IMG/VR virus record: IMGVR_UViG_2778261538_000002
DNA: 38,253 bases
Origin: a virus
Taxonomy: Duplodnaviria > Heunggongvirae > Uroviricota > Caudoviricetes
Reading direction: 5' to 3' (one strand)
Shown here: positions 2,621 to 38,253 of the stretch, piece by piece
How positions within the stretch are numbered: the first letter of the stretch is position 1
How the letters are laid out: each line of letters starts with the position of its first letter
The notes under the pieces: generated by a model
The model's input: only the letters and a program-made list of their open reading frames with translations
The model's database searches: none
What the model was told of the DNA's origin: nothing
Position numbers and translations under genes: made by a program

Positions 2621-2855
2621 AACTGAAGTTGCCCTGAAAATGAAATTTTTTTGCACAACCGCAGAACTTTTCCGCAGGGCATCAGTCTTAATTAGTGCCA
2701 CTGCTTTTCTTTGATGTCCCCATTTTGTGGAGCCCATCAACCCCGCCATTTCGGTTCAAGGTTGATGGGTTTTTTGTTGCCTTAAATTTATGCCGTTTAA
2801 AATCATGATGTTAGAAGCACTGTTTTTTAACGATGGCGACAAAATGGCGGCAGCG
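2621..2855. other. host-prophage junction; attachment site expected here
   Basis: interval between the ybjL stop and the first phage gene (ogr); exact core repeat cannot be defined because the other att lies outside the window. Confidence 0.4.
2733..2776 (+). terminator. rho-independent terminator downstream of ybjL
   Basis: perfect 10-bp inverted repeat cccatcaacc/ggttgatggg (2733-2742 and 2760-2769) followed by TTTTTT; loop is long (17 nt). Confidence 0.5.
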
Positions 2856-24266: not shown

Positions 24267-25346
24267 CTAACATTGTTTACATAAATCAGAAAAACTACCA
24301 CCGAAATAATACAGTGCAGATTTATCATTTAGTTCTTTAAAAACTTCACACGCACGCTGGTGTATCTCAATAGCACTAGATTTATTTCGTCCAATAATAA
24401 CAGTCTCTTTTTCAGTACTATCGCCATCCAGAAAAGTCTTCAAAAGAAAATTAATAATAAAGTCTTCCTTTGGGAAAGAATAACCTATAAAGATCAACAG
24501 ATCTGCTTGTCTCAACTGGGTAGAGGATTTCACAAAAGCTGTCTTAAAGTATTTATCCCCATAGTCTTGTTCATTTGAAGGCAAGATAATATTTGGAACA
24601 ACTTTTGCGTTCAATAATGAATCATAATCTATTTTAAAACCATCCCTTGCAGCAACAACCTCAAATCCTCCATTAAGCTTATACAAACCTATACCTTTAG
24701 GCTGAGGACACACTAATATATTATTATGATGCACAGGAAAACCCCGATTAACTGAACGTTCAGGGAATGCATGATGTAGCACTTTATCAATAACTATATC
24801 GTAGTTTGTTGTGACTACATCCAGTGCTGAAGCTTCCTGTAAACTCTTAAAGAAAGAAATAATATTCCTTTTATTCTGCCCAAATTTTGCAGTTTGACTT
24901 AGCTTTAAATCATTTGCCGGTATTTTTTTTGCAAACTTATTTTTTACATATAGTTTTACTTGTGCCTCAAACAACTCAAGCGTATGCCTATCAAGATACG
25001 ACGGCAATAAACTTGGATATCGCTTATAAACATCCAATGCATATTTAAAACTCTTGAAAACATTAGCTTTGTCATCTAAACCTGCATTAGCATCCGCCCA
25101 TTTAAATTTAAGACTGTCGAACAAAGAAAAAAAACCATACTCATCAATATTTTCTAATGCTTCGTCTTCAGAGATGGAAAAGACTTCATTACTCAATGGG
25201 TATTTGTCATCCCAGGCTTTAGAAAATCCTGCTCCGAGAAAAACACATACTCTTCGCTCTCTTATTTTTGATTTCAATGTGGCGAAGGATGTAATTTCTA
25301 AATTATTAGGTGTCAAAATATCACCATCATAAGCAAAGCTAGTCAT
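24267..25346 (-). CDS. SIR2-like domain protein (candidate NADase effector)
   Basis: 359 aa; RVCVFLGAGFS Rossmann motif near the N-terminus, TTNYD motif, His cluster (VLHH, PVHH) and IFIGYSFP motif, which I recognise as the SIR2_2 (PF13289-type) pattern; AT-rich; starts 14 nt after the ATPase stop. Confidence 0.7.
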   Translation of the reverse strand: MTSFAYDGDILTPNNLEITSFATLKSKIRERRVCVFLGAGFSKAWDDKYPLSNEVFSISEDEALENIDEYGFFSLFDSLKFKWADANAGLDDKANVFKSFKYALDVYKRYPSLLPSYLDRHTLELFEAQVKLYVKNKFAKKIPANDLKLSQTAKFGQNKRNIISFFKSLQEASALDVVTTNYDIVIDKVLHHAFPERSVNRGFPVHHNNILVCPQPKGIGLYKLNGGFEVVAARDGFKIDYDSLLNAKVVPNIILPSNEQDYGDKYFKTAFVKSSTQLRQADLLIFIGYSFPKEDFIINFLLKTFLDGDSTEKETVIIGRNKSSAIEIHQRACEVFKELNDKSALYYFGGSFSDLCKQC

Positions 25347-25359
25347 GTTTTTCTCACGC

Positions 25360-26589
25360 TTAGTTTTTTATATCAAGAAAAGCTGGAACTAATCCAAATT
25401 CGCCACGTAAATATTTGGCAGACACTTTAGCATCTTTCCTTACAGAAAATACCGTAGCATTAGTTATTATCGACGCTTTAGATGAATCCTTGACTATAAT
25501 ATTAAGCTCATCTCTTCTAAACACATCATCTAATAAAGGAATATTATGTGTAGACATAATAAACTGCACACCATTTTTACGGCAGGTTTTATCAAATATT
25601 TTTTTGATTAGTGCACTTGCCAAAGAATAGTGAATAGATGAATCTATTTCATCCACATAAAGTGTAAAATCATATTCACTAGCCCAAATCAATATTGCTA
25701 AAAATGTTAAAACATTTAGTGTGCCTTGGGAAAAAAATTCATCCCTACGGTCAGGGCCTATTCTAGTAAAATCACCATCATCATTTTTTATGAGATAAAC
25801 AAATTTATACTCATTATCTTCGCCAAATCTTACAAATTCAACTTTATCTATATGCAGCGGCGACTGAATAACCATTTCATTATAGGTATTTAAAATTCTT
25901 TGACCACTCTCATTTAATTTTTCATTTCCTTCCTCACCTGATAACTGGCGCTTAAGTTGTCCTTCAACAAATTTAAGACTTGGATTTTTGAATTTTTCAG
26001 AGTAATAAGGCAATTGTTTTAATGCCCAGCGTTGGGTTTCAACAAGAGCATCAATTTCTAAAGATTTTGCAAAAGTTACAACAGCTCCACTTTCTCTTAA
26101 GACAGGATTAATCAACGACTCGTATTTTTTTAAGTCGGGCTTTTTGAAAACCAACCCATTTTCATTGCGAATAAAAATACATTGTTCCCTTGCACTTTTT
26201 CTTATCGGTCTAATGTATAAATACTCATCTACAATAACTTCATTTAAAACTGACACACCATAACGGACGAAGTTTTTTTGCTCTTCATCAATCAGTATCG
26301 CTTCATAGGAAGTAGGTTTGTTACGACATTCCTTATTTAGAAGGAAAGGCATATGCAATTTGTGTAATGTGTCACTATGAATTGAATTTGCAAATTCAGT
26401 AATAGCATTTATTAATTGTGTTTTACCAACACCATTTCCGCCTATTAATGCGGCAAATCTGTTTACTCTTAAACCATTCGCTAATGTCACGATATGTTCA
26501 GGATGCTCATCCCCAATTGAGGAAGCAAAACTAAGAACCTGTCTTTCGCGAAAGCTCTTGTAATTTTCTAAACTGAATGCAACTAGCAT
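25360..26589 (-). CDS. ABC/AAA_15-21-type ATPase (candidate defense sensor)
   Basis: 409 aa; Walker A GGNGVGKT, Walker B LYVDEID, H-loop-like FIMSTHN; GAGGA RBS; AT-rich; no TOPRIM or coiled-coil evident. Confidence 0.75.
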   Translation of the reverse strand: MLVAFSLENYKSFRERQVLSFASSIGDEHPEHIVTLANGLRVNRFAALIGGNGVGKTQLINAITEFANSIHSDTLHKLHMPFLLNKECRNKPTSYEAILIDEEQKNFVRYGVSVLNEVIVDEYLYIRPIRKSAREQCIFIRNENGLVFKKPDLKKYESLINPVLRESGAVVTFAKSLEIDALVETQRWALKQLPYYSEKFKNPSLKFVEGQLKRQLSGEEGNEKLNESGQRILNTYNEMVIQSPLHIDKVEFVRFGEDNEYKFVYLIKNDDGDFTRIGPDRRDEFFSQGTLNVLTFLAILIWASEYDFTLYVDEIDSSIHYSLASALIKKIFDKTCRKNGVQFIMSTHNIPLLDDVFRRDELNIIVKDSSKASIITNATVFSVRKDAKVSAKYLRGEFGLVPAFLDIKN

Positions 26590-26704
26590 CTGAAGTCCTC
26601 ATTTTTGCGTAAAAAACGCATTTTTGACTATTTCGGTAATGTAATCCAGTGCTAACGCAAAAGCAACTTAACATTTTATGTTATATTATTAATTATGTAT
26701 CCGC

Positions 26705-26735
26705 GCGCGCTCGTATCCCCGCCACGCCTGCCCGC
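26705..26735. other. putative cos site (cohesive end)
   Basis: - strand reads GGCGTGGCGGGGATACGAG; the first 13 nt match the P2/186 cohesive-end sequence as I recall it (GGCG[A/T]GGCGGGGAAAGCA). Confidence 0.5.
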
Positions 26736-27037
26736 TTTATGCAGTGGTTTTCATGCACCTGCATGACATGAGTAAAAGCCCGCCAGTTCTAGCAGGTCTC
26801 TGCAAAAACGATCCTCAATCGATCATGCGATTTCATGCAGCATAGTCATGCACAGCCGAGGGAAGCGTAAATCCGTATCTGAATGACCGCTGAAAAGCGA
26901 ATCATACGGGTTTACAAAGATGAAAGTCCGCTGTGAACGAGAAACGGACTATGATACTAACAAGAGAGCATCACTGTTAATATTTGAACAATTAATGCTC
27001 AGCTATTTATCTATTTTACAATCAGAAAGGACTTGTA

Positions 27038-27424
27038 ATGGTTACGGTTGATGAATTAAAGATGAAATATCCGGACGCGAATGCCTGGCAAGTGGGCGAC
27101 AGCCCTGAACTGGCTAACGAGCTTGCAGCACTTATCAAAAAAGGGATTAAAACGGCCTCCTGCGGCTCTTATGCCTCTTACCAGAAGGAAGAGTTTGCCC
27201 CAAGGATTGGGAGCTATAACATCATCCTTAACGGCCAGGATGTACCGGTATGCGTGACCCGGCTAGTGTCGATGCGACTGGTGCGTTTTTGTGATGTTAC
27301 TGCCGAGTTCGCTCGCAAGGAAGGTGAAGGCGATTTGAGTCTTGAATATTGGCAGAGAGAGCATCAACGATTTTTTACATGTGAAGGTTACTTTTCTGAC
27401 GATATGGAGCTGATTATGGAATAG
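27038..27424 (+). CDS. ASCH-domain protein
   Basis: 128 aa; ASCH/PUA-like pattern (LIKKGIKTASCG ... FARKEGEGDLSLEYWQREHQRFF); AAAGGA RBS. Confidence 0.7.
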   Translation: MVTVDELKMKYPDANAWQVGDSPELANELAALIKKGIKTASCGSYASYQKEEFAPRIGSYNIILNGQDVPVCVTRLVSMRLVRFCDVTAEFARKEGEGDLSLEYWQREHQRFFTCEGYFSDDMELIME

Positions 27425-27638
27425 TTTGAAGTTGTTGATGTTTTGTAATCCAACAACGTTTATGCATGTCAGATTAGAATAACTGAGTACCGTTTTATCA
27501 CGTGAAATTTGTATTAATGCCCGCCTCTGGCACAAAGCGAACGAGCACTTATCAAAATGCCCACCCACCTTACGCCTCGTTTCACTCGTTGCCCAAACTA
27601 GCCCCCATCAGAATGAATCCTCCTGGGGGCAACGTTTC

Positions 27639-27872
27639 TTAATGCAGCCAGCTGTCGTCTTCCCACACCTTCTGCATAATTTTCATCACTTGTTTTCTTT
27701 CTTCATCCAGTTGCAGTCCGGTCAGTTCCACACCGTTAGAGCTACCTTTACGGATACGAATTACCGTTTTGGGATACAGGGGGCGCAGATTGCGGTAAAG
27801 CTCGGATTCAAGGGCGTCCAGGGTAGACTGGCTAATCTTCTGCTCTTTATCGATCATTATTTCAATGCGCAT
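27639..27872 (-). CDS. DinI-family protein (C-terminal part of a 186 Tum-like SOS module)
   Basis: 77 aa from Met25 of ORF 27639-27944 (MRIEIMIDKEQ ... WEDDSWLH), clearly DinI-like. Confidence 0.75.
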   Translation of the reverse strand: MRIEIMIDKEQKISQSTLDALESELYRNLRPLYPKTVIRIRKGSSNGVELTGLQLDEERKQVMKIMQKVWEDDSWLH

Positions 27873-27882
27873 AAAAGTCACC

Positions 27883-28071
27883 TCAACTGATGACATCCAT
27901 TGAGCGGTTGTATTCGTGGGTTCTGATTTTTGCCATGAGTTCATCTGTCAGTTCAGAAACCCACTGCAGGGCCAGCCCCTTCTCTTCATCACTACACTCA
28001 CTAGCCGCTACAAGCTTAAGAAAAAAATCAATGCGCTGGAGCTTCAAAGACTCCAAAAAATAGTCCTGCAT
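27883..28071 (-). CDS. small protein upstream of the DinI-like gene (possible Tum N-terminal/antirepressor part)
   Basis: 62 aa from Met35 of ORF 27883-28173; AGGAGG RBS; overlaps the DinI-like ORF out of frame. Confidence 0.55.
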   Translation of the reverse strand: MQDYFLESLKLQRIDFFLKLVAASECSDEEKGLALQWVSELTDELMAKIRTHEYNRSMDVIS

Positions 28072-28099
28072 TTTTCCTCCTATGACACCACAAGCAATA

Positions 28100-28130
28100 C
28101 TGTACACATAACCACTATTTATATTTACAG
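28100..28130. promoter_or_regulatory. putative LexA (SOS) operator overlapping the promoter of the tum-like operon
   Basis: CTATTTATATTTACAG (28115-28130) is one mismatch from CTGT-N8-ACAG; adjacent CTGTACACATAACCAC is a weaker site; TTTACA -35-like element on the - strand. Confidence 0.45.
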
Positions 28131-28224
28131 TATATAATAATCTTACTGATGTAAAACGTTTTTTTACGCTCATCAGCCTGATATGCCTGGTATTATTAAG
28201 AGCACGAATTGTTAACCCGCGTAA

Positions 28225-30639
28225 TTAATACAGGTTCCGCCATTTATCATCCTCCTGCAGACGCTGGTTCCGATAGAAGATACGCAGGCCTGCTTCTGAC
28301 GGAATACTGCCGCCGCGAAGGAGTAAATCGACCTCTTTCTCGCTGCCATCAAATCCTCTGGACTTCAGCTCATAGACGAGCTGCAGTCGTTGATGGTCTG
28401 TAATTCGCTGTTTGTAGTCTTTACGCCGTATCGGTTTAACCAGGCGTAACCTTGCAGCCAGTTCCCGGCGCTCTTTTTTGCTCATACTGTGCAGGTAATC
28501 GTGCAACTCCTTGTCATCCATGCGGGTAATGTCCGTTCTGGTGTCCCCATCAGCTGATTTATCTTTCTCCTGTTGGTTCAAATTTTCAGCAAGGGGACAG
28601 TTATTGCCACGAGTCCAAGGGGCGCAAGCGCCCTGGTCGGCTGCCGCCTCCTGAACGTCAACGGCCTTACGAACCATTTTCCACTTCACGGCATGAGTGC
28701 AGATCTTGCCCTCTGCAATGGGTGACCAGATGCCATAAATACGAATGCCGTGATCGCCATAGGCGGTCGGCTCTTCGTTAATTTCATAAGCGGTTCTGAT
28801 GAGGTGATATTTGCGGGGAACCAGTACGCCGCCCTGCTTCATGATGTAGGTGGCAAAACAACCAGCATCAGCAGCAGCCAGGATGGCATCAAGGCGCGGG
28901 TTATCCAGTACCGGCGCACCTGCTTTTTTGTCGCCCTGTTGCCTTGCCGCCTGACCAGCCAGCAATCGCAGTTCACGGTAAGCCTGACGCCCCGGAATGC
29001 CAAAGAAGCGGAATTGCTGAACACGATGCAGAGACGCCCAGGCATTAACGTATTCAGCGTTATCACGCAGGGATTTACCCGTTTCCTTACTGATCTCGCC
29101 AGCCAGACCACGCCCGTCAATGTTCTTACTGATGTATTTCGCGATGTAGCTTGTTGGCGTACCTTTGCGCGGGTTTATCAGCTCAGACTTAAAGCGTGGT
29201 CCCGTGTTATTACCCAGCTCCTCGCGGTCTTCACGAATGGCAAACTTACGCAACAAAGCAGTAATGGCGCGGCGATCTTTTTTGCGCATAAAACACAACA
29301 GGTGCCAGTGAACTGTACCGTCATGATGCGGCTCAGCCACCCGCACGCCATACCAGCGCAATCCGGCTTTGTGCATCGCCTTACGAAATGCAGCAAACAT
29401 GCCGACCAGATAATCACTGCTTTGTCTTACCGTCGCATTTGTCCAGGTCGGGTTGGGCCTGCCGTTATTTAGCGTGGAATGGAAACGTGACGGACAGGTG
29501 ATGGTGTAGAAAACGGCGCAGTCACCGCGCATTTCCGCGATAAGCTCCAGACCTTTAACACAGGCCATCATCTCATTGCGGCGATGCGCAGGGTTGCTGC
29601 TGCTGGCGTTTACCACATCCTCCATGTCCAGCGTGTCGCCGTCTTCGTTCACCAGTTCATGAGAACGGAAAAACTCCAGCGACTTACGGCGCTGCTCACG
29701 TTTATGCATCACGGCTTCATAGCTGACATAGGGAGATGCTTTTTTGCTGACCAGGCAAACAGCACGCAACTGCTCTTCCCGCCATTCGCAACGCATCTTC
29801 CATAATTTCCGGTACCACCAGTCGGCGCACAACATACGCGCCAGCGAACCCGGAATGAGTTCATAGGGCACGGGTTTACGGCGGTTTCTTTTCCGGCGGA
29901 GTTGCTCAAACGCAGGCGGTATGACATCCAGTCGCAGGGTTTCTGCTGCCACCTTTTCCCATGTCTTGCGGATTTCTTCTGGCTTAACATCATCGGTGGC
30001 GTACAAATCACCACAAGCGGCATCAAGACACATGCTCATATGCGCAGCGACAAGAGTAGACAGGCGTTTCACCTGATCCTGACTCATTTCAGGCAAGTTC
30101 AGCAGGCCGTCCAGCCCTTCATGGCTTGCCATAAAGCGAAAAGAAGTGGATAGCTGACTCTCGCGTACATGCTCCAGTCGTTCCAGACATGGCTTAATCG
30201 TCTCACGCAAATAGCGGGAATAAGCCTTTGGCCTGCCCAGGCTGCTGAAGTATTCAATACGTTGCATCAGCGGCTTGCTGATATGGGAAGGCTGGGCGTT
30301 AACGTCCGCCAGTATGACCATGTCCGGATTAAAACGCTGCTGCTCATGCGCCAGCTTTGCCCGGCTAATGAGCTTATCCTGCTCCATTTCGCGTTGGACA
30401 GGATCACGGGATTCATTAAAGAAATAACGCTCCCAGACCTGATCACTCAGTGCCTCGAGGCGCAGTTGTTCCTGCTCGTTATCGGCAGCGTACAGAGTGA
30501 TCAGGTTTGAAAGCGCAGAAACCGGCGCAACTTCCGCCGGGTCCAGATAAGGGTTAATAGCCTTTTTCGGGCTGTTCCATGAGAATGCTGCGGCGGCCTC
30601 GTTAAAGCCGCTGCAGTTGTTCATATCAGCATGGCTCAT
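28225..30639 (-). CDS. A: replication initiation protein A (rolling-circle nickase)
   Basis: about 804 aa from the ATG at 30639 (ORF track begins at an upstream TTG); HUH-type [10 protein letters not shown] motif and tyrosine pair YIAKYISK; ATGA-coupled to dam. Confidence 0.88.
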
Positions 30640-31493
30640 GCACGCACTCCGTACACGACGGAACAATCCACGCCACGCGAAGGATCAAATCCTACCCAGC
30701 AGCGCGGCCCGGAAACAGCGATGATTTCTGTTGCAGATTTACTCTCACCAGCTGCCACGCCGATGCTGCGTTTTGCCTTGATGTAGTGGTGAGTAAAATT
30801 GCGATACAGCGAACGGATCAGGGATGTGTCACTGTTAGAAACAATGACCGGATGTCCTTCTGATGACCGATGTTCAAGAACGGATGCCAAGTGATACTGG
30901 TCATCTTCAGTGAAGCCGTCAGTGTGATAGCCGGAAAACGTACCGTCATAAGGCGGATCGCAATACACCACATCCCCCGCCTTCAACATCGCCAGCGTTT
31001 CATCAAAGCTTGCGCAGATAAACGTTGCCCGCTGGGCTTTCTCTGCAAATGCGCGAATTTCTTTTTCAGGGAAATACGGATTTTTATAATTACCGTACGG
31101 AATGTTGAAATGCCCGCTCTTGTTATAGCGACATAACCCACGGTAACCATGACGATTGAGATACAGGAAATATACCGCTTTCATGAAATCAGTAATTTCA
31201 GTGGAGTAATTAAACTCCTGCCTTATGTTGTAATAAGCCACCTCCCTGTTTGCTTCCTCAAATAAAGCTCTGGCACGAGATATAAACGCCTCGCAATCAG
31301 CAGCAACCTTTTTATAGAGGTTGATTAAATCAGGATTAATATCCGCAACAAGATAGCTGGGGTAATCCGTCTCCATCATCACAGCACAGGAACCCGCGAA
31401 AGGTTCAACCAGTCGCGGGCCTGCAGGAAGATGTTTTTTCAGTTCGGACATAATGGCGGTTTTATTTCCCGCCCATTTCAGGATGGTGCTCAT
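30636..31493 (-). CDS. dam: DNA adenine methyltransferase (Dam-like)
   Basis: ORF 30636-31553 trimmed to Met21 ([11 protein letters not shown]); motif [10 protein letters not shown] and motif IV DPPY. Confidence 0.85.
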
Positions 31494-33632: not shown

Positions 33633-34583
33633 ATGTCAACTCAAAAATTCACATTTCGCCATATCAAAGAGGATGCGAAAGCCATTGTTATGCAGAATCG
33701 TGGGGGACAGAAAGTCATTGAGCGAATACTCAAAGCTTATGGCTTCAAGTCACGCCAAGCGTTCTGTAACCATCTTGGTATTTCACAAAGTACGATGGCC
33801 AATAGATATGCTCGCGATACATTTCCTGCTGATTGGGTTGTTATATGCTCAATGGAAACAGGAGCATCTTTGGAATGGCTGGCGTTTGGTTCTGATGCGG
33901 CAGAAGAAATACTCTCAACTGCTCCAAATGGATACAACGAAGACGACCAGCGAGATGACGTTGAAAGTGACAATCATATACCTTCCTTTAATTTTCATAA
34001 TGATCATCAAGTCGATTTCAATCAGGGAGGAAAAGCGGCAATAGAACGGATAGTTAAGGCTTATGGCTTTAAAACTCGTCAAGCACTGGCAGATCATCTT
34101 GGTATATCAAAAAGTACATTAGCTACACGCTATATGCGTGACTCATTCCCTGCTGATTGGATAATACAGTGTGCCCTTGAAACTGGATTCTCATTGAAAT
34201 GGCTTGTTGATGGGCAAGGACTTAATAAAAGTTCACAAAATGAAAACATTGTGTGCATAAACAAGTACGTGCTTGCCGATGGTGCACTCGAAATGAAGGG
34301 TAACTACATTTTTGATAAGTCCTTTGTACCTAAGTCGATTAAAGATCCAATGTTAATATTTGATGGCAGCAGGATATACTTAGCTGAGGGGAACTTTGAC
34401 GAAATTAGCGATGGATTGTGGTTTGTTGAAATTGAAGGAAAAATCAGTGTTCGCGAGGTAATAAGAATACCGGTAGGTAAAGTAAGAGTAACGAGCTCAA
34501 ACTCAAATATTACTTTTGACTGTGCAATTAATGAACTCAAACCGGTTGCAAAATGCCAGTTCAACCTAATGACTATAATATAA
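33633..34583 (+). CDS. cI: CI-type immunity repressor with duplicated N-terminal HTH domain
   Basis: 316 aa; two tandem copies of a 186-CI-like HTH module (ERILKAYGFKSRQAF...HLGISQSTMANRY..FPADW and ERIVKAYGFKTRQAL...HLGISKSTLATRY..FPADW) plus a CI-like C-terminal domain. Confidence 0.8.
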   Translation: MSTQKFTFRHIKEDAKAIVMQNRGGQKVIERILKAYGFKSRQAFCNHLGISQSTMANRYARDTFPADWVVICSMETGASLEWLAFGSDAAEEILSTAPNGYNEDDQRDDVESDNHIPSFNFHNDHQVDFNQGGKAAIERIVKAYGFKTRQALADHLGISKSTLATRYMRDSFPADWIIQCALETGFSLKWLVDGQGLNKSSQNENIVCINKYVLADGALEMKGNYIFDKSFVPKSIKDPMLIFDGSRIYLAEGNFDEISDGLWFVEIEGKISVREVIRIPVGKVRVTSSNSNITFDCAINELKPVAKCQFNLMTII

Positions 34584-34614: not shown

Positions 34615-35733
34615 ATGTCTAGAAGTTTTGCTATTTGGGGATGCCGAAACTACGCTAAAGGCCCAGGAGAGGATTATAATGAGACTCAAGCAGATTTTAT
34701 AAACGAACTACACATCAACTTTTGGAATATCACATCCCAAAAATGCTATCATCTAGATTTTGGCATATCATTTTCTCGCCCCCAAGATAATGAAATTTCA
34801 GAACAGGGTGCAATCTGTTTATTTTTACCGTTTGTAAAAGAAAAAGATGACTTCATTGATTTAAGTACGAACCTAGATAGCAGCAAAGAACTGATCACCG
34901 CGGTTTTTAATGAATACGTCATAAATAAAGACTCAATAAACGAGAAACACTTATTATTAAATTTAACACGAAAAGGTAAACTAATAGTTAATACAAAACT
35001 TGATTTTCAAGGGGGGGCATTCGACAAAAGAATCACATTGAGAAAGAGGAATGATGGGACATATGTATTTTTCCATCTGCAGGATTGTTTGTCTAATTGC
35101 AATAATTGCAATTACTACATCAGATTCAGAATTAACCTAAATGAATCTGATGTTGAAGCAATTGTTAAAACATTCTATCCAAAAGATTTATTCTTAAAAA
35201 GCAATATTGAACGTTCTGATATTATAGATTTCAGAATTAACGAACAAAGAAATTTGCCAAACGAAGTCGCAACCACACTGGCCAGCGCCTCTTGCACTCC
35301 AAGCAAATATCATTTTTTCGTTATACGAGATATGGTTGACGAAGCATCGGCATCAGGTTCAAGCTATCAAGGTTGTCGTATTCTTGAATCAGAGACATGG
35401 AAAAAATACTTTTCAAATAATGTCAATTTTGGTAAGAACGATCCTATGATTTACCACTGGAAAGCTAAAAAGGATGATGGCGCACGGCTAGGTGACTTCT
35501 CTGTAGTAGTGAAGTTCAAGACTACTAAATCAAAAATTAGTAAAATATTTACATATATGTTCTATGCTGCAGCCATAGCATACATAATGAAATTTATTCC
35601 AACAGATGGTGTGCATAAAGACATTTATCTAATTTGCACCATTGCATTTATTGTAGCTTACATTGCCGCTCACTTTATTAAACCACAAAAATTATCCAAC
35701 TTTATTGCACTGGTGAAAAAATGGAAAAATTAA
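34615..35733 (+). CDS. hypothetical protein with C-terminal transmembrane helices (cargo gene 1)
   Basis: 372 aa; large soluble N-terminal region, two hydrophobic helices near the C-terminus; AT-rich; 32 nt after the cI stop. Confidence 0.7.
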   Translation: MSRSFAIWGCRNYAKGPGEDYNETQADFINELHINFWNITSQKCYHLDFGISFSRPQDNEISEQGAICLFLPFVKEKDDFIDLSTNLDSSKELITAVFNEYVINKDSINEKHLLLNLTRKGKLIVNTKLDFQGGAFDKRITLRKRNDGTYVFFHLQDCLSNCNNCNYYIRFRINLNESDVEAIVKTFYPKDLFLKSNIERSDIIDFRINEQRNLPNEVATTLASASCTPSKYHFFVIRDMVDEASASGSSYQGCRILESETWKKYFSNNVNFGKNDPMIYHWKAKKDDGARLGDFSVVVKFKTTKSKISKIFTYMFYAAAIAYIMKFIPTDGVHKDIYLICTIAFIVAYIAAHFIKPQKLSNFIALVKKWKN

Positions 35734-36800
35734 AACACATTCAGTTTAATGAAGTTAATTTTAACGATGTTTTTTTTGACTCCTTAAAAAAAGACTATCA
35801 ACATGGATTTATCGATTGGTTCAATAAAAAATGTAATTCTATCGAAGAAAAAGCTTATGTCTTATATAATGATGACAACACAATTGATGGTTTTTTATAC
35901 TTGAAAATTGAGCGTGGTATTATTGACGACGTAATACCACCTTTGACTCGTGCTAAACATCTAAAAATAGGCACATTTAAATTCAACCCGAAGGGGACTC
36001 TACGAGGACAAAGATTCCTCAAAAAGATTTTTGATCATGCACTAAAAGAAAAAGTAGATGATATCTATGTGACTGTTTTTGAAAAACATGATTATTTAAT
36101 TAGACTATTCAAAATTTATGGTTTTATTCATGTTGCTACAAAACAAACTGCTAATGGTAGTGAACAAGTCTTAGTAAGAGAGATGAATAAAAATCATCTT
36201 ACAGGGGATATTTTGTCTGATTATCCGTATATAAATAATAGCAACGATGAAAACAAATATCTGTTATCCATATATCCTGAATTCCATACAAAACTGTTTC
36301 CTGATTCGATACTCACCACAGAGTCCCCTGATATAATCACGGATGTATCTCATGCGAATAGCATTAGAAAAATATATATATGCAGAATGCATGACGTAAA
36401 AAAAATAAAAAGACATGACATTTTAGTTATTTACAGAACAAGTGACAAAGAAAACAGAGCGTATTATCGCTCTGTCGCAACGTCATTATGTGTAGTTGAA
36501 GATATTAGACATATTGATTCTTTTTATAGTGAAAAAGAATTCATACAGTATTGTACACGATACAGTGTATTCTCTGAAAATGAATTAAAAAAATCCTATC
36601 AAACAAAAAGATACCCTTACATTATTAGTTTTACATATAATCTAGCTTTACCTAAAAGAATAAACCGTGCTAAACTAATCAAAGAAATTGGTTTAAATCC
36701 TAAAAACCGTTGGGGTGTTGTTAAATTAACCGATGAGCAATTTGACGATATAATTAAACTTGGTGCTGTAGATGAAAGTATTATTGTCAATAAAACCTGA
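35721..36800 (+). CDS. hypothetical protein, N-terminal GNAT-like fold fused to an unknown C-terminal domain (cargo gene 2)
   Basis: 359 aa; N-terminal 150 aa have GNAT-like topology (…KIGTFKF…RGQRFLKKIF…YLIRLFKIYGF…); overlaps neighbouring genes at both ends. Confidence 0.65.
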   Translation: MEKLKHIQFNEVNFNDVFFDSLKKDYQHGFIDWFNKKCNSIEEKAYVLYNDDNTIDGFLYLKIERGIIDDVIPPLTRAKHLKIGTFKFNPKGTLRGQRFLKKIFDHALKEKVDDIYVTVFEKHDYLIRLFKIYGFIHVATKQTANGSEQVLVREMNKNHLTGDILSDYPYINNSNDENKYLLSIYPEFHTKLFPDSILTTESPDIITDVSHANSIRKIYICRMHDVKKIKRHDILVIYRTSDKENRAYYRSVATSLCVVEDIRHIDSFYSEKEFIQYCTRYSVFSENELKKSYQTKRYPYIISFTYNLALPKRINRAKLIKEIGLNPKNRWGVVKLTDEQFDDIIKLGAVDESIIVNKT

Positions 36801-37143
36801 ATTTGTTGAAAAAATCCTTAATGGGACGAAGAAGTTTGAATTCAGGAAAGGTATTTTTAAAAAACCGGATGTAAAATCTGTGGTTATTTATTCAACAATG
36901 CCTGTCGGTAAAGTTGTTGCTGAATTTGACATTGCAGATGTTATAGAAGATAAGCCGAGTATTGTATGGGAAAAAACAAGCCAATACGCAGGTATCAGTA
37001 AACAATTTTTTGACTCTTATTTTCATAGCAAAGAAAAAGCCTTTGCTATAGAAATTGGTAATCTAAAAATCTATGACCAACCACTTCATCTAAGTTCATT
37101 AGGTGATAACATAACGGCCCCGCAATCATATCGGTACTTATGA
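36772..37143 (+). CDS. ASCH-domain protein (cargo gene 3)
   Basis: 123 aa; MKVLLSIKPEFVEKILNGTKKFEFRK is a typical ASCH N-terminus. Confidence 0.7.
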   Translation: MKVLLSIKPEFVEKILNGTKKFEFRKGIFKKPDVKSVVIYSTMPVGKVVAEFDIADVIEDKPSIVWEKTSQYAGISKQFFDSYFHSKEKAFAIEIGNLKIYDQPLHLSSLGDNITAPQSYRYL

Positions 37144-37221
37144 TGTATGTAACCTTAAGCATCATACATTGACACTGGTTATATATACAGTAAAAATGCT
37201 CTCCACTGGAGGGCATTTTTT

Positions 37222-38253
37222 ATGGCAGTACGAAAACTCACCACAGGAAAATGGCTTTGCGAATGTTACCCCGCCGGACGTAGTGGGCGTCGTGTGCGTA
37301 AACAATTCGCCACCAAAGGCGAAGCTCTTGCTTTTGAGCGTCACACGATGGAAGAAACTGAATCAAAGCCCTGGCTGGGCGAATCAGTGGATCGTCGAAC
37401 CCTGAAAGACGTGGTTGAGCTATGGTTCAAACTACATGGTAAATCTCTGACTGCTGGGCAGCATGTCTATGACAAATTGCTGCTGATGGTTGACGCTCTG
37501 GGCAATCCCCTTGCAACCGATCTCACATCTAAAATGTTTGCCCATTATCGAGATAAACGACTGACAGGTGAGATCTACTTCAGCGAGAAATGGAAGAAAG
37601 GAGCCAGCCCGGTCACCATTAACCTGGAGCAAAGCTATCTAAGTAGTGTTTTTAGCGAACTATCCCGCCTGGGCGAATGGACGTATCCGAACCCACTGGA
37701 GAACATGCGAAAATTCACCATCGCAGAAAAAGAGATGGCATGGCTTACCCATGAGCAGATTGTTGAACTGCTGGCTGATTGCAAACGTCAGGACCCAATT
37801 CTGGCTCTGGTAGTCAAAATATGCTTAAGCACAGGCGCACGCTGGCGAGAAGCCGTAAATCTTACCCGCTCACAGGTGACCAAATACCGAATTACCTTTG
37901 TAAGAACGAAGGGGAAGAAAAACAGAAGCATCCCTATCAGTAAAGAGCTTTACGAAGAGATCATGGCGCTTGATGGGTTCAATTTCTTCACAGACTGCTA
38001 TTTTCAATTTTTATCCGTGATGGAAAAAACGTCTATCGTGCTCCCTCGCGGTCAACTGACACACGTTCTGCGCCATACGTTTGCGGCGCATTTCATGATG
38101 TCGGGTGGAAATATCCTTGCTTTGCAAAAAATCCTCGGACATCACGACATAAAAATGACCATGCGTTACGCACATCTGGCACCGGATCACCTGGAAACTG
38201 CATTACGGTTTAATCCGCTGGCAACACTACCAACATCAACAGCAACTGTTTGA
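37222..38253 (+). CDS. int: tyrosine integrase
   Basis: 343 aa; C-terminal catalytic region HVLRHTFA...LGHHDIKMTMRYAHL; stop at the window end. Confidence 0.92.
   Translation: MAVRKLTTGKWLCECYPAGRSGRRVRKQFATKGEALAFERHTMEETESKPWLGESVDRRTLKDVVELWFKLHGKSLTAGQHVYDKLLLMVDALGNPLATDLTSKMFAHYRDKRLTGEIYFSEKWKKGASPVTINLEQSYLSSVFSELSRLGEWTYPNPLENMRKFTIAEKEMAWLTHEQIVELLADCKRQDPILALVVKICLSTGARWREAVNLTRSQVTKYRITFVRTKGKKNRSIPISKELYEEIMALDGFNFFTDCYFQFLSVMEKTSIVLPRGQLTHVLRHTFAAHFMMSGGNILALQKILGHHDIKMTMRYAHLAPDHLETALRFNPLATLPTSTATV

Follow-up and report, generated by a model that had tools for sequence, protein, structure and literature searches.

Positions 27,639 to 28,130 of a 38,253-nucleotide (nt) stretch of viral DNA (Caudoviricetes, IMG/VR record IMGVR_UViG_2778261538_000002; the whole stretch is called the window below), together with the promoter just upstream, very probably represent the SOS operon of a Fels-2-like (Felsduovirus, P2/186 family) E. 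coli prophage in its split tumA/tumB form. The operon consists of a gene for a 62-amino-acid (aa) Tum-type antirepressor (open reading frame 1, ORF1), followed by a gene for a 77-aa DinI-family protein (ORF2), behind a promoter that is covered by two predicted LexA boxes, one of which carries a rare base change. About one fifth of complete E. coli genomes (some 1,100 of 5,426) carry this module; the operon itself is already known and has been dissected functionally in E. coli HS. Beyond existing annotation, the present comparison adds a putative colicin-like double operator, a rare recurrent operator change and a TumA that stays nearly invariant between CI alleles, all of them modest additions. 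The gene structure, conservation, homologies and rarity of the variant come from the data presented here.

In the lysogen, LexA dimers on the two overlapping SOS boxes would cover the -10 element and the transcription start, and the operon would be silent. Upon DNA damage RecA would become active, LexA would cleave itself and the operon would be transcribed. The first product, the TumA-type antirepressor, would inactivate the 186-type CI repressor, most likely via its helix-turn-helix (HTH) domain and by blocking DNA binding, and CI inactivation would direct the prophage to lytic growth. The second product, a homologue of DinI and of the C-terminal half of Tum, is an accessory expected to bind RecA filaments and modulate the SOS response. 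In the window copy, a CAG to TAG change in the box covering the -10 element would probably lower LexA affinity and make induction leakier or earlier, with control kept. Within this scheme we infer four elements, namely that CI is the target, that the HTH domain is the contact, what the DinI-like protein does and how the base change acts.

The antirepressor gene and its presumed target

The operon lies on the minus strand directly downstream of gene A and co-directional with it, with its own promoter, and the gene A stop codon is 153 nt upstream of ORF1; the order is that of phages 186, PSP3 and Fels-2. The DNA of the locus shares about 97-98% identity with Fels-2 and with many P2-like prophages of Klebsiella, Salmonella and E. 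coli, in which the two genes, where annotated, mostly appear as 'hypothetical protein' and 'DinI family protein'. An earlier note on this DNA had proposed an SOS-inducible tum-type module downstream of gene A, and this proposal is borne out by the position, the LexA box, the homology to the Tum N-terminus and the genetics of the related prophage DuoHS. The 62-aa ORF that it described is also present, with an ATG at 28071, a stop codon at 27883 and AGGAGG before the start.

Profile comparison identifies ORF1 as distantly homologous to the N-terminal half of 186 Tum. ORF1 matches the PHROG profiles phrog_698 (E = 3.6e-38), phrog_8554 (2.4e-8) and phrog_1993 (2e-3), and residues 1-70 of 186 Tum match the same three in a colinear manner (phrog_1993, 1.5e-23; phrog_8554, 3.4e-12; phrog_698, 5.9e-6), while PSP3 TumA matches phrog_1993 (2.7e-32). 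Furthermore, hhalign aligned a 28-member ORF1 alignment with a 20-member alignment of the Tum N-terminal family over residues 1-43 of both (96.5% probability, E = 9.3e-10), and the two share the motif RI/V-x-h-h-x-+-L-x-A-x-x-x-C-x-x-x-D/E-+-x-h-A-L. The alignment to 186 Tum that had been proposed as a check thus links ORF1 by profile-profile methods, with BLASTP empty, and ORF2 by 41% identity to Tum residues 71-145.

Functional evidence comes from close relatives. ORF1 is 98% identical to Fels-2 STM2728 and identical at 61 of 62 residues to ECHS_RS04495 of E. coli HS, whose prophage DuoHS adjoins ybjL and carries a replication endonuclease gene, ECHS_RS04495 (62 aa) and the DinI-like ECHS_RS04500, the operon DNA being 97% identical to that of the window. 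In DuoHS, deletion of ECHS_RS04495 or a lexA(Ind-) allele abolishes lysis and virion foci induced by mitomycin C (MMC) (Ortiz de Ora et al., PMC12055606). Since both the tum deletion and lexA(Ind-) block induction, the ORF1 orthologue alone is required for SOS induction and a cleavable LexA is needed; both dependences are thus taken from published experiments on near-identical phages. In PSP3, the upstream gene carries antirepressor activity according to a personal communication given in a passage of PMC3121763.

The window encodes a CI repressor of the 186 type (33633-34583, plus strand; PF07022 and PF16452) and not of the non-inducible P2 C type. It is a 316-aa long form, in which an extra N-terminal Phage_CI_repr HTH domain (approximately residues 1-95) is followed by an HTH domain (135-197) and a C-terminal domain (209-308); such long two-HTH CIs of about 290-330 aa form a sizeable and diverse group in E. 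coli, Salmonella, Klebsiella and Enterobacter. In 67 other loci with both genes (L118-L238), TumA is 92-100% identical to that of the window, mostly 97-100%, whereas the CI alleles, which include short (about 190-230 aa) and long (about 310 aa) forms, are only 33-64% identical to the window's. Among 50 distinct CI sequences, mean identity is 74% in the HTH domain, which contains long invariant stretches, 21% in the linker and 42% in the C-terminal domain. Because TumA is nearly invariant across many CI alleles, contact with the conserved DNA-binding domain of CI is the simplest explanation, which suggests that one TumA may serve many immunity types. In line with this, the 186 record states that full-length Tum 'inhibits CI DNA binding', and by this analogy CI would be the direct target of TumA and the HTH domain its contact surface.

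Several points nevertheless count against this picture. BLASTP detected no similarity of ORF1 to 186 Tum or to PSP3 TumA (or of PSP3 TumA to 186 Tum), no Pfam family matched ORF1 and a profile search of the PDB retrieved no solved structure for it; because these searches were empty, the homology of ORF1 with Tum is a matter of profile methods. The CI of the window is unusual in its 316-aa length and extra HTH domain, which may bear on operator binding and on its sensitivity to TumA. In the literature, no report of TumA-CI binding was found for the ORF1 subfamily, and the DuoHS paper does not go beyond the statement that tum 'inhibits pro-lysogenic regulators' (PMC12055606). In addition, non-polar deletion of the dinI homologues of the Gifsy phages had no significant effect on induction, as a passage of PMC3121763 states, which makes the role of the DinI-like gene uncertain.

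An alternative reading of a TumA that hardly varies alongside widely divergent CI alleles is that its direct target is something other than CI; ORF1, although needed for induction, would then work through a different lysogeny factor or through the host. The disparity between the two proteins across the 67 loci, the vague wording of the DuoHS study and the fact that no report of direct binding was found for this TumA family all speak for this possibility, which we nonetheless judge improbable: ORF1 is homologous to the N-terminal part of 186 Tum, whose full-length form is described as inhibiting CI DNA binding, the PSP3 communication assigns the antirepressor activity to tumA, and the well-conserved HTH domains of the associated CIs offer a common target.

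The SOS promoter, its predicted double operator and a rare base change

The promoter was placed by analogy with the annotated p95 promoter of 186 and by conservation. In 186, a -35 hexamer TTCACA is separated by 18 nt from the -10 hexamer TACTGT, which lies inside the LexA box; in the window, TTTACA and TACTGT are 17 nt apart, and TTTACA is found at that spacing in 102 of 113 related loci. A generic promoter scan of positions 27400-28400 reported no sigma-70 site, the SOS promoter being missed because TACTGT matches TATAAT at three of six positions.

The core of the distal LexA box (box 1) reads CTATTTATATTTACAG on the plus strand (28115-28130), and the box is TACTGTAAATATAAATAGTG on the coding strand. 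The pattern CTGT-N8-ACAG with up to one mismatch occurs 19 times in the window versus 13.2 +/- 3.4 expected, which is not above chance, and pattern statistics therefore give the box no support. The box is considered genuine because of its position, overlapping the -10 element as in 186 p95, and its conservation, CTG-N10-CAG being kept at this place in 109 of the 113 loci while the spacer drifts. On these two grounds, the near-consensus LexA box that the earlier note saw overlapping the promoter appears to be real.

The proximal box (box 2) reads CAGTGGTTATNNNTACAGTA in relatives and TAGTGGTTATGTGTACAGTA in the window (28117..28098). Its ACAG is in exact register in 98 of the 113 relatives, and 186 and PSP3 are without it. 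Boxes 1 and 2 are predicted to form a colicin-type double SOS operator: the 35 nt that they occupy (28132..28098) are almost identical to the operator before colicin-like bacteriocin genes on ColRNAI plasmids (TACTGTATATAAAACCAGTGGTTATATGTACAGTA on the Col plasmid versus TACTGTAAATATAAACAGTGGTTATATGTACAGTA in Fels-2), with more than 1,200 plasmid records matching at a permissive threshold (E up to 10). Like the window, ColE1-type colicin and bacteriocin promoters have two boxes in this register. In the window, GTGG replaces CTGT in box 2, which is also the case in ColE1, and TAG replaces CAG in box 1. The colicin promoters differ in that they control a toxin gene and in that their boxes lie just downstream of a separate -10 element, whereas box 1 of the window supplies the -10 itself. 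Basal expression from colicin promoters with overlapping SOS boxes is undetectable, although each box taken singly is weak, with a heterology index (HI) of 7.5-13 (PMC2994835). The very tight, all-or-none expression associated with colicin boxes suggests by analogy that a tum promoter of the Fels-2 type would be firmly silenced and, once induced, switch on in the same all-or-none way. A literature search for the operator sequence yielded no match.

In box 1 of the window, a coding-strand C to T change converts CAG to TAG (G to A at 28117 on the plus strand, giving CTAT where relatives have CTGT). CAG is found in Fels-2, HS and 109 of 113 loci, and TAG only in the window and in one related locus, L094. 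A 42-nt query centred upstream of the site matched 957 complete E. coli genomes, of which four carry the variant as a perfect match (UMNF18, mip270_04, 22-245 and 22-250), and IMG/VR contains the variant 21-mer once versus at least 120 canonical copies. The idea that the base is unique to the window assembly was rejected, as it is present in four finished E. coli genomes and one IMG/VR contig. Over 900 nt, the nearest neighbours of the window (8 differences), of UMNF18 (2) and of L094 (2) all carry C, and these three carriers differ from one another at 58 or more positions. Because the nearest relatives of each carrier have C and the carriers are not close kin, the change arose at least three times, and by this comparison it is rare and derived.

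The changed position is C in all 19 E. coli LexA sites of the matrix used here, and its penalty of +3.7 is the largest possible for a single position, raising the approximate HI of box 1 from about 4.7 to about 8.3, a value within the working colicin range. A caution against this estimate is that the matrix was rebuilt from 19 sites and is only roughly calibrated (4.47 versus a published 4.31 for recA, and 4.8 and 4.6 versus 6.39 and 8.31 for lexA); it was used for the single-base penalty only. In the window, box 1 keeps an intact left arm and box 2 is likewise intact. The change probably weakens LexA binding without abolishing it, and leakier or earlier induction of the operon is plausible. 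We regard it as possible, yet rather unlikely, that CAG to TAG is a recurrent operator-down allele raising basal tumA expression and not a neutral polymorphism.

A more drastic outcome, in which the change destroys LexA control, tumA becomes constitutive and the lysogen is unstable unless CI or TumA has compensated, so that SOS regulation is lost, has a low probability. The invariance of the C in 109 of 113 relatives and in all 19 matrix sites would favour it, as would the Gifsy-1 dinI-gfoA operon, where one promoter base decides whether the phage is inducible at all and a single base switches induction off (PMC5322425). The Gifsy dinI-gfoA/gftA operons likewise pair a small antirepressor with a DinI homologue under LexA repression, but have dinI first, unrelated antirepressors and repressors and a lambdoid backbone. 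In the window, by contrast with a lost operator, the left arm of box 1 and all of box 2 remain, and colicin operators work with individually weak boxes by binding two dimers. Moreover, finished genomes such as that of UMNF18 carry the variant in prophages that look complete and number at least three independent cases, which disfavours lethality or gross instability. A weakened operator under retained LexA control accordingly stays the preferred, if only probable, account of the window copy.

Three further loci show other alterations of this region. L069 has an analogous CAG to TAG change in box 2, and in L037 the promoter and box 1 are replaced by unrelated GC-rich DNA, with ORF1 intact. L034, from Siccibacter, is a decayed copy, in which ORF1 stops after 20 codons and no box 1 is recognisable.

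Two adjacent genes in place of one fused tum

ORF2 matches the Pfam DinI family (PF06183) over profile positions 1-63 of 63 (E = 6.6e-23, 81.3 bits with a gathering cut-off of 24.2), phrog_189 ('RecA filament binding protein DinI') and, over its full length, E. coli DinI (PDB 1GHH, residues 1-75, E = 2.7e-6). The Fels-2 and E. coli HS copies are 100% identical to it (77/77 in HS). The ORF lister gave ORF2 as a 101-aa form from ATG 27944, which overlaps ORF1 out of frame and was described as such in the earlier note. In 95 of 114 related loci, a purine-rich spacer of 9-12 nt with a Shine-Dalgarno sequence precedes a DinI gene of 77 aa (60 aa in one locus), and the open stretch upstream of the conserved ATG ranges from 1 to 25 codons across loci, for which reason the ATG 27944 extension was rejected as coding. 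With ATG 27872 as the conserved start and no conserved coding sequence in the extension before it, the overlap results from choosing the longest ORF, and a 10-nt gap takes its place; the DinI assignment stands and the overlap does not.

In nearly all of the 113 loci, which come from many genera of enterobacteria, ORF1 is an uninterrupted 62-aa frame. Its 47 distinct alleles have 28, 17 and 56 variable sites at codon positions 1, 2 and 3, respectively, with a median ratio of nonsynonymous to synonymous substitution (dN/dS) of 0.065, and ORF1 is under strong purifying selection. In about a dozen relatives (from Citrobacter, Lelliottia, Pantoea, Erwinia and others) no dinI follows the ORF1 gene. 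When 1.84 billion representatives were searched exhaustively with HMMER, 66 relatives of ORF1 were retrieved (E <= 0.001); nearly all are stand-alone proteins of about 55-100 aa, and none of them is a Tum-length fusion with the ORF1 domain at the N-terminus. Similarly, the N-terminal domain of the 186 type occurs mostly in stand-alone 'Tum protein' entries of 63-91 aa, and the 186 record itself lists internal starts that yield the DinI-like part alone.

The earlier note had offered two explanations, an antirepressor encoded as two products or a frameshifted tum gene. That the locus is a fused 186-type tum disrupted by a frameshift or nonsense mutation, with an inactive antirepressor and a prophage that is not SOS-inducible, might be suspected from the different frames of the two ORFs, from the alignment of ORF2 to the C-terminal half of Tum and from a combined length that does approximate that of Tum (62 + 77 = 139 aa versus 146 aa), but it is almost certainly wrong and is already refuted by the comparative sequence data: the two-cistron layout, with a start codon and a Shine-Dalgarno sequence for the second gene, recurs in 95 of 114 relatives across many genera, ORF1 is under purifying selection and occurs without dinI, Fels-2 and PSP3 annotate two genes, neither the 66 homologues nor most proteins with the 186-type N-terminal domain are fused, and DuoHS, with exactly the same layout, is MMC-inducible in a tum-dependent way. 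Both genes are intact, conserved in more than 100 relatives and under purifying selection, each has its own start and Shine-Dalgarno sequence, and the frameshift proposal is not upheld. Joining of ORF1 and ORF2 by frameshifting was also considered and rejected. A passage of PMC3121763, citing Bunny et al. 2002, describes the tum of Fels-2 and PSP3 as split in two by a stop codon.

ORF1 and ORF2 are two adjacent intact genes in different frames, and they correspond to distinct annotated genes of Fels-2 and of PSP3 (tumA/tumB). The observations of the earlier note were largely accurate, and its first explanation, an antirepressor made as two products, is correct in that the functions of Tum reside on two separate polypeptides; however, the 62-aa protein alone is of the antirepressor type, as it occurs without dinI and induction depends on its orthologue. 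The DinI-like gene is an accessory in its own right and not part of the antirepressor.

The known systems lie at different distances from this arrangement. Phage 186 resembles the window in the position of tum (cp95) downstream of gene A, in the p95 -10 hexamer TACTGT that forms the left arm of a LexA box, in a 186-type CI and in both parts of its Tum, the N-terminal part (the hhalign match) and the DinI-like C-terminal part. It differs in that the two parts are fused in a 146-aa protein, with the DinI-like part also made from internal starts, in that the Tum N-terminus is too diverged from ORF1 for BLASTP, and in its single near-perfect LexA box; downstream, 186 has orf97, whereas the window has defence-type cargo. 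PSP3 has the same split form downstream of gene A and behind a LexA box, with tumA (60 aa, annotated as 'similar to 5' end 186 tum; UV induction of prophage') followed by a DinI-like tumB (77 aa) that is very similar to ORF2. Unlike the window, it has a single LexA box, a 3-nt intergenic spacer and a TumA of the 186-like sequence type (phrog_1993), which ORF1 matches only weakly. The closest systems, Fels-2 STM2728/STM2726.1, whose DinI gene is annotated as similar to PSP3 TumB, and DuoHS ECHS_RS04495/ECHS_RS04500, have essentially the operon of the window at about 97-98% DNA identity, with the same ORF1 (61/62), an identical ORF2 and the same promoter and predicted double operator, but with the canonical CAG in box 1 and other neighbouring cargo genes.

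Two hairpins were noted, one in the operon and one after it. The first, a small one at 27877-27894 on the minus strand (GTCATC-AGTTGA-GGTGAC, then TTTTAT), takes in both the stop codon of ORF1 and the Shine-Dalgarno sequence of ORF2; about 80 close relatives have exactly the same junction with its 3' arm, whereas diverged ones have a different junction, and the hairpin could couple ORF2 translation to ORF1 or attenuate dinI. The second, after the operon (27601..27630), folds at -22.1 kcal/mol (z = -1.75) and has no clean U-run, which makes it unconvincing as an intrinsic terminator.

Neighbouring features and significance

Table 1. Features of the operon and of other parts of the window
Feature	Position	Strand	Basis or remark
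Gene A (replication endonuclease)	28225..30666	-	ORF list; gpA-like/replication endonuclease annotation in Fels-2 and E. coli relatives
-35 hexamer TTTACA of the SOS promoter (186 p95 equivalent)	28150..28155	-	Read from sequence
-10 hexamer TACTGT, left arm of LexA box 1	28132..28127	-	Sequence; 186 p95 analogy
Box 1 (distal LexA box), TACTGTAAATATAAATAGTG	28113..28132	-	C to T at 28117
Box 2 (proximal LexA box), TAGTGGTTATGTGTACAGTA	28098..28117	-	Fixed register, overlaps box 1 by 5 nt
ORF1 Shine-Dalgarno AGGAGG	28081..28076	-	Sequence
ORF1, tumA-type antirepressor gene, 62 aa + stop	27883..28071 (ATG 28071)	-	Homology, orthologue genetics
ORF2 Shine-Dalgarno GAGGTGA	27884..27878	-	Overlaps ORF1 stop codon (27885-27883)
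Intergenic spacer, 10 nt	27873..27882	-	Sequence
ORF2, tumB/DinI-family gene, 77 aa + stop	27639..27872 (ATG 27872, MRIEIM...)	-	Pfam, PHROG, PDB
GC-rich hairpin GCCCCCA...UGGGGGC after the operon, possible weak terminator	27601..27630	-	RNA fold; position of 186 t95a
ASCH-domain protein	27038-27424	+	Defence-type cargo
AAA_21 ATPase	25360-26589	-	Profile match, PADLOC AbiLi 2e-51
SIR2-like protein	24267-25346	-	Defence-type cargo
PDC-M11A	35721-36800	+	E 7e-139
PDC-M11B, ASCH-domain protein	36772-37143	+	E 2e-49
RybB small RNA gene, full length	2700-2778	+	Rfam 105 bits

A second, better LexA-like box lies in a strong promoter-like site just upstream of int (37169-37224, plus strand). TTGACA (37169-74) is followed there by CTGGTTATATATACAG (37175-90), TAAAAAT, a hairpin (ATGCTCTCC-ACT-GGAGGGCAT), a T-run and the int ATG at 37222, and the int Shine-Dalgarno sequence GGAGGG forms the 3' arm of the hairpin. 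A transcript from this promoter would start within or after the 5' arm and be without the hairpin, which read-through from cI or the cargo would include. About 1,100 E. coli genomes retain this segment. Across 35 related loci, CTG-N10-CAG never changes, its spacer does, and the hairpin has undergone compensatory changes. The site is a candidate for SOS-controlled int expression that bypasses a terminator or a hairpin sequestering the ribosome-binding site; a literature search on such an arrangement upstream of int found no paper.

Defence-type cargo occupies 24267-27424, between the dinI-like gene and the portal gene, where Fels-2, UMNF18 and HS have different genes. A second cargo island lies between cI and int (34615-37143, plus strand) and includes PDC-M11, a candidate defence system in PADLOC, and a 372-aa protein for which no family match was found. 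The rybB gene is host DNA, which places the prophage end on the ogr side near its 3' end, and the E. coli HS prophage is at the same ybjL-side locus as the prophage of the window.

To conclude, the annotation of a widespread operon is settled: the 62-aa 'hypothetical protein' by gene A is a tum-type antirepressor, its 'DinI' neighbour is a separate cistron, and neither is broken. If TumA contacts the conserved HTH domain of CI, cross-induction between co-resident Fels-2-like prophages would be predicted. Were the operator change an operator-down allele, it would lower the SOS threshold or raise the spontaneous induction of Fels-2-like prophages, and its recurrent origin would be consistent with selection tuning the induction rate through the LexA operator. 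The change could alter how readily the prophage and its cargo of defence genes are induced and transferred.

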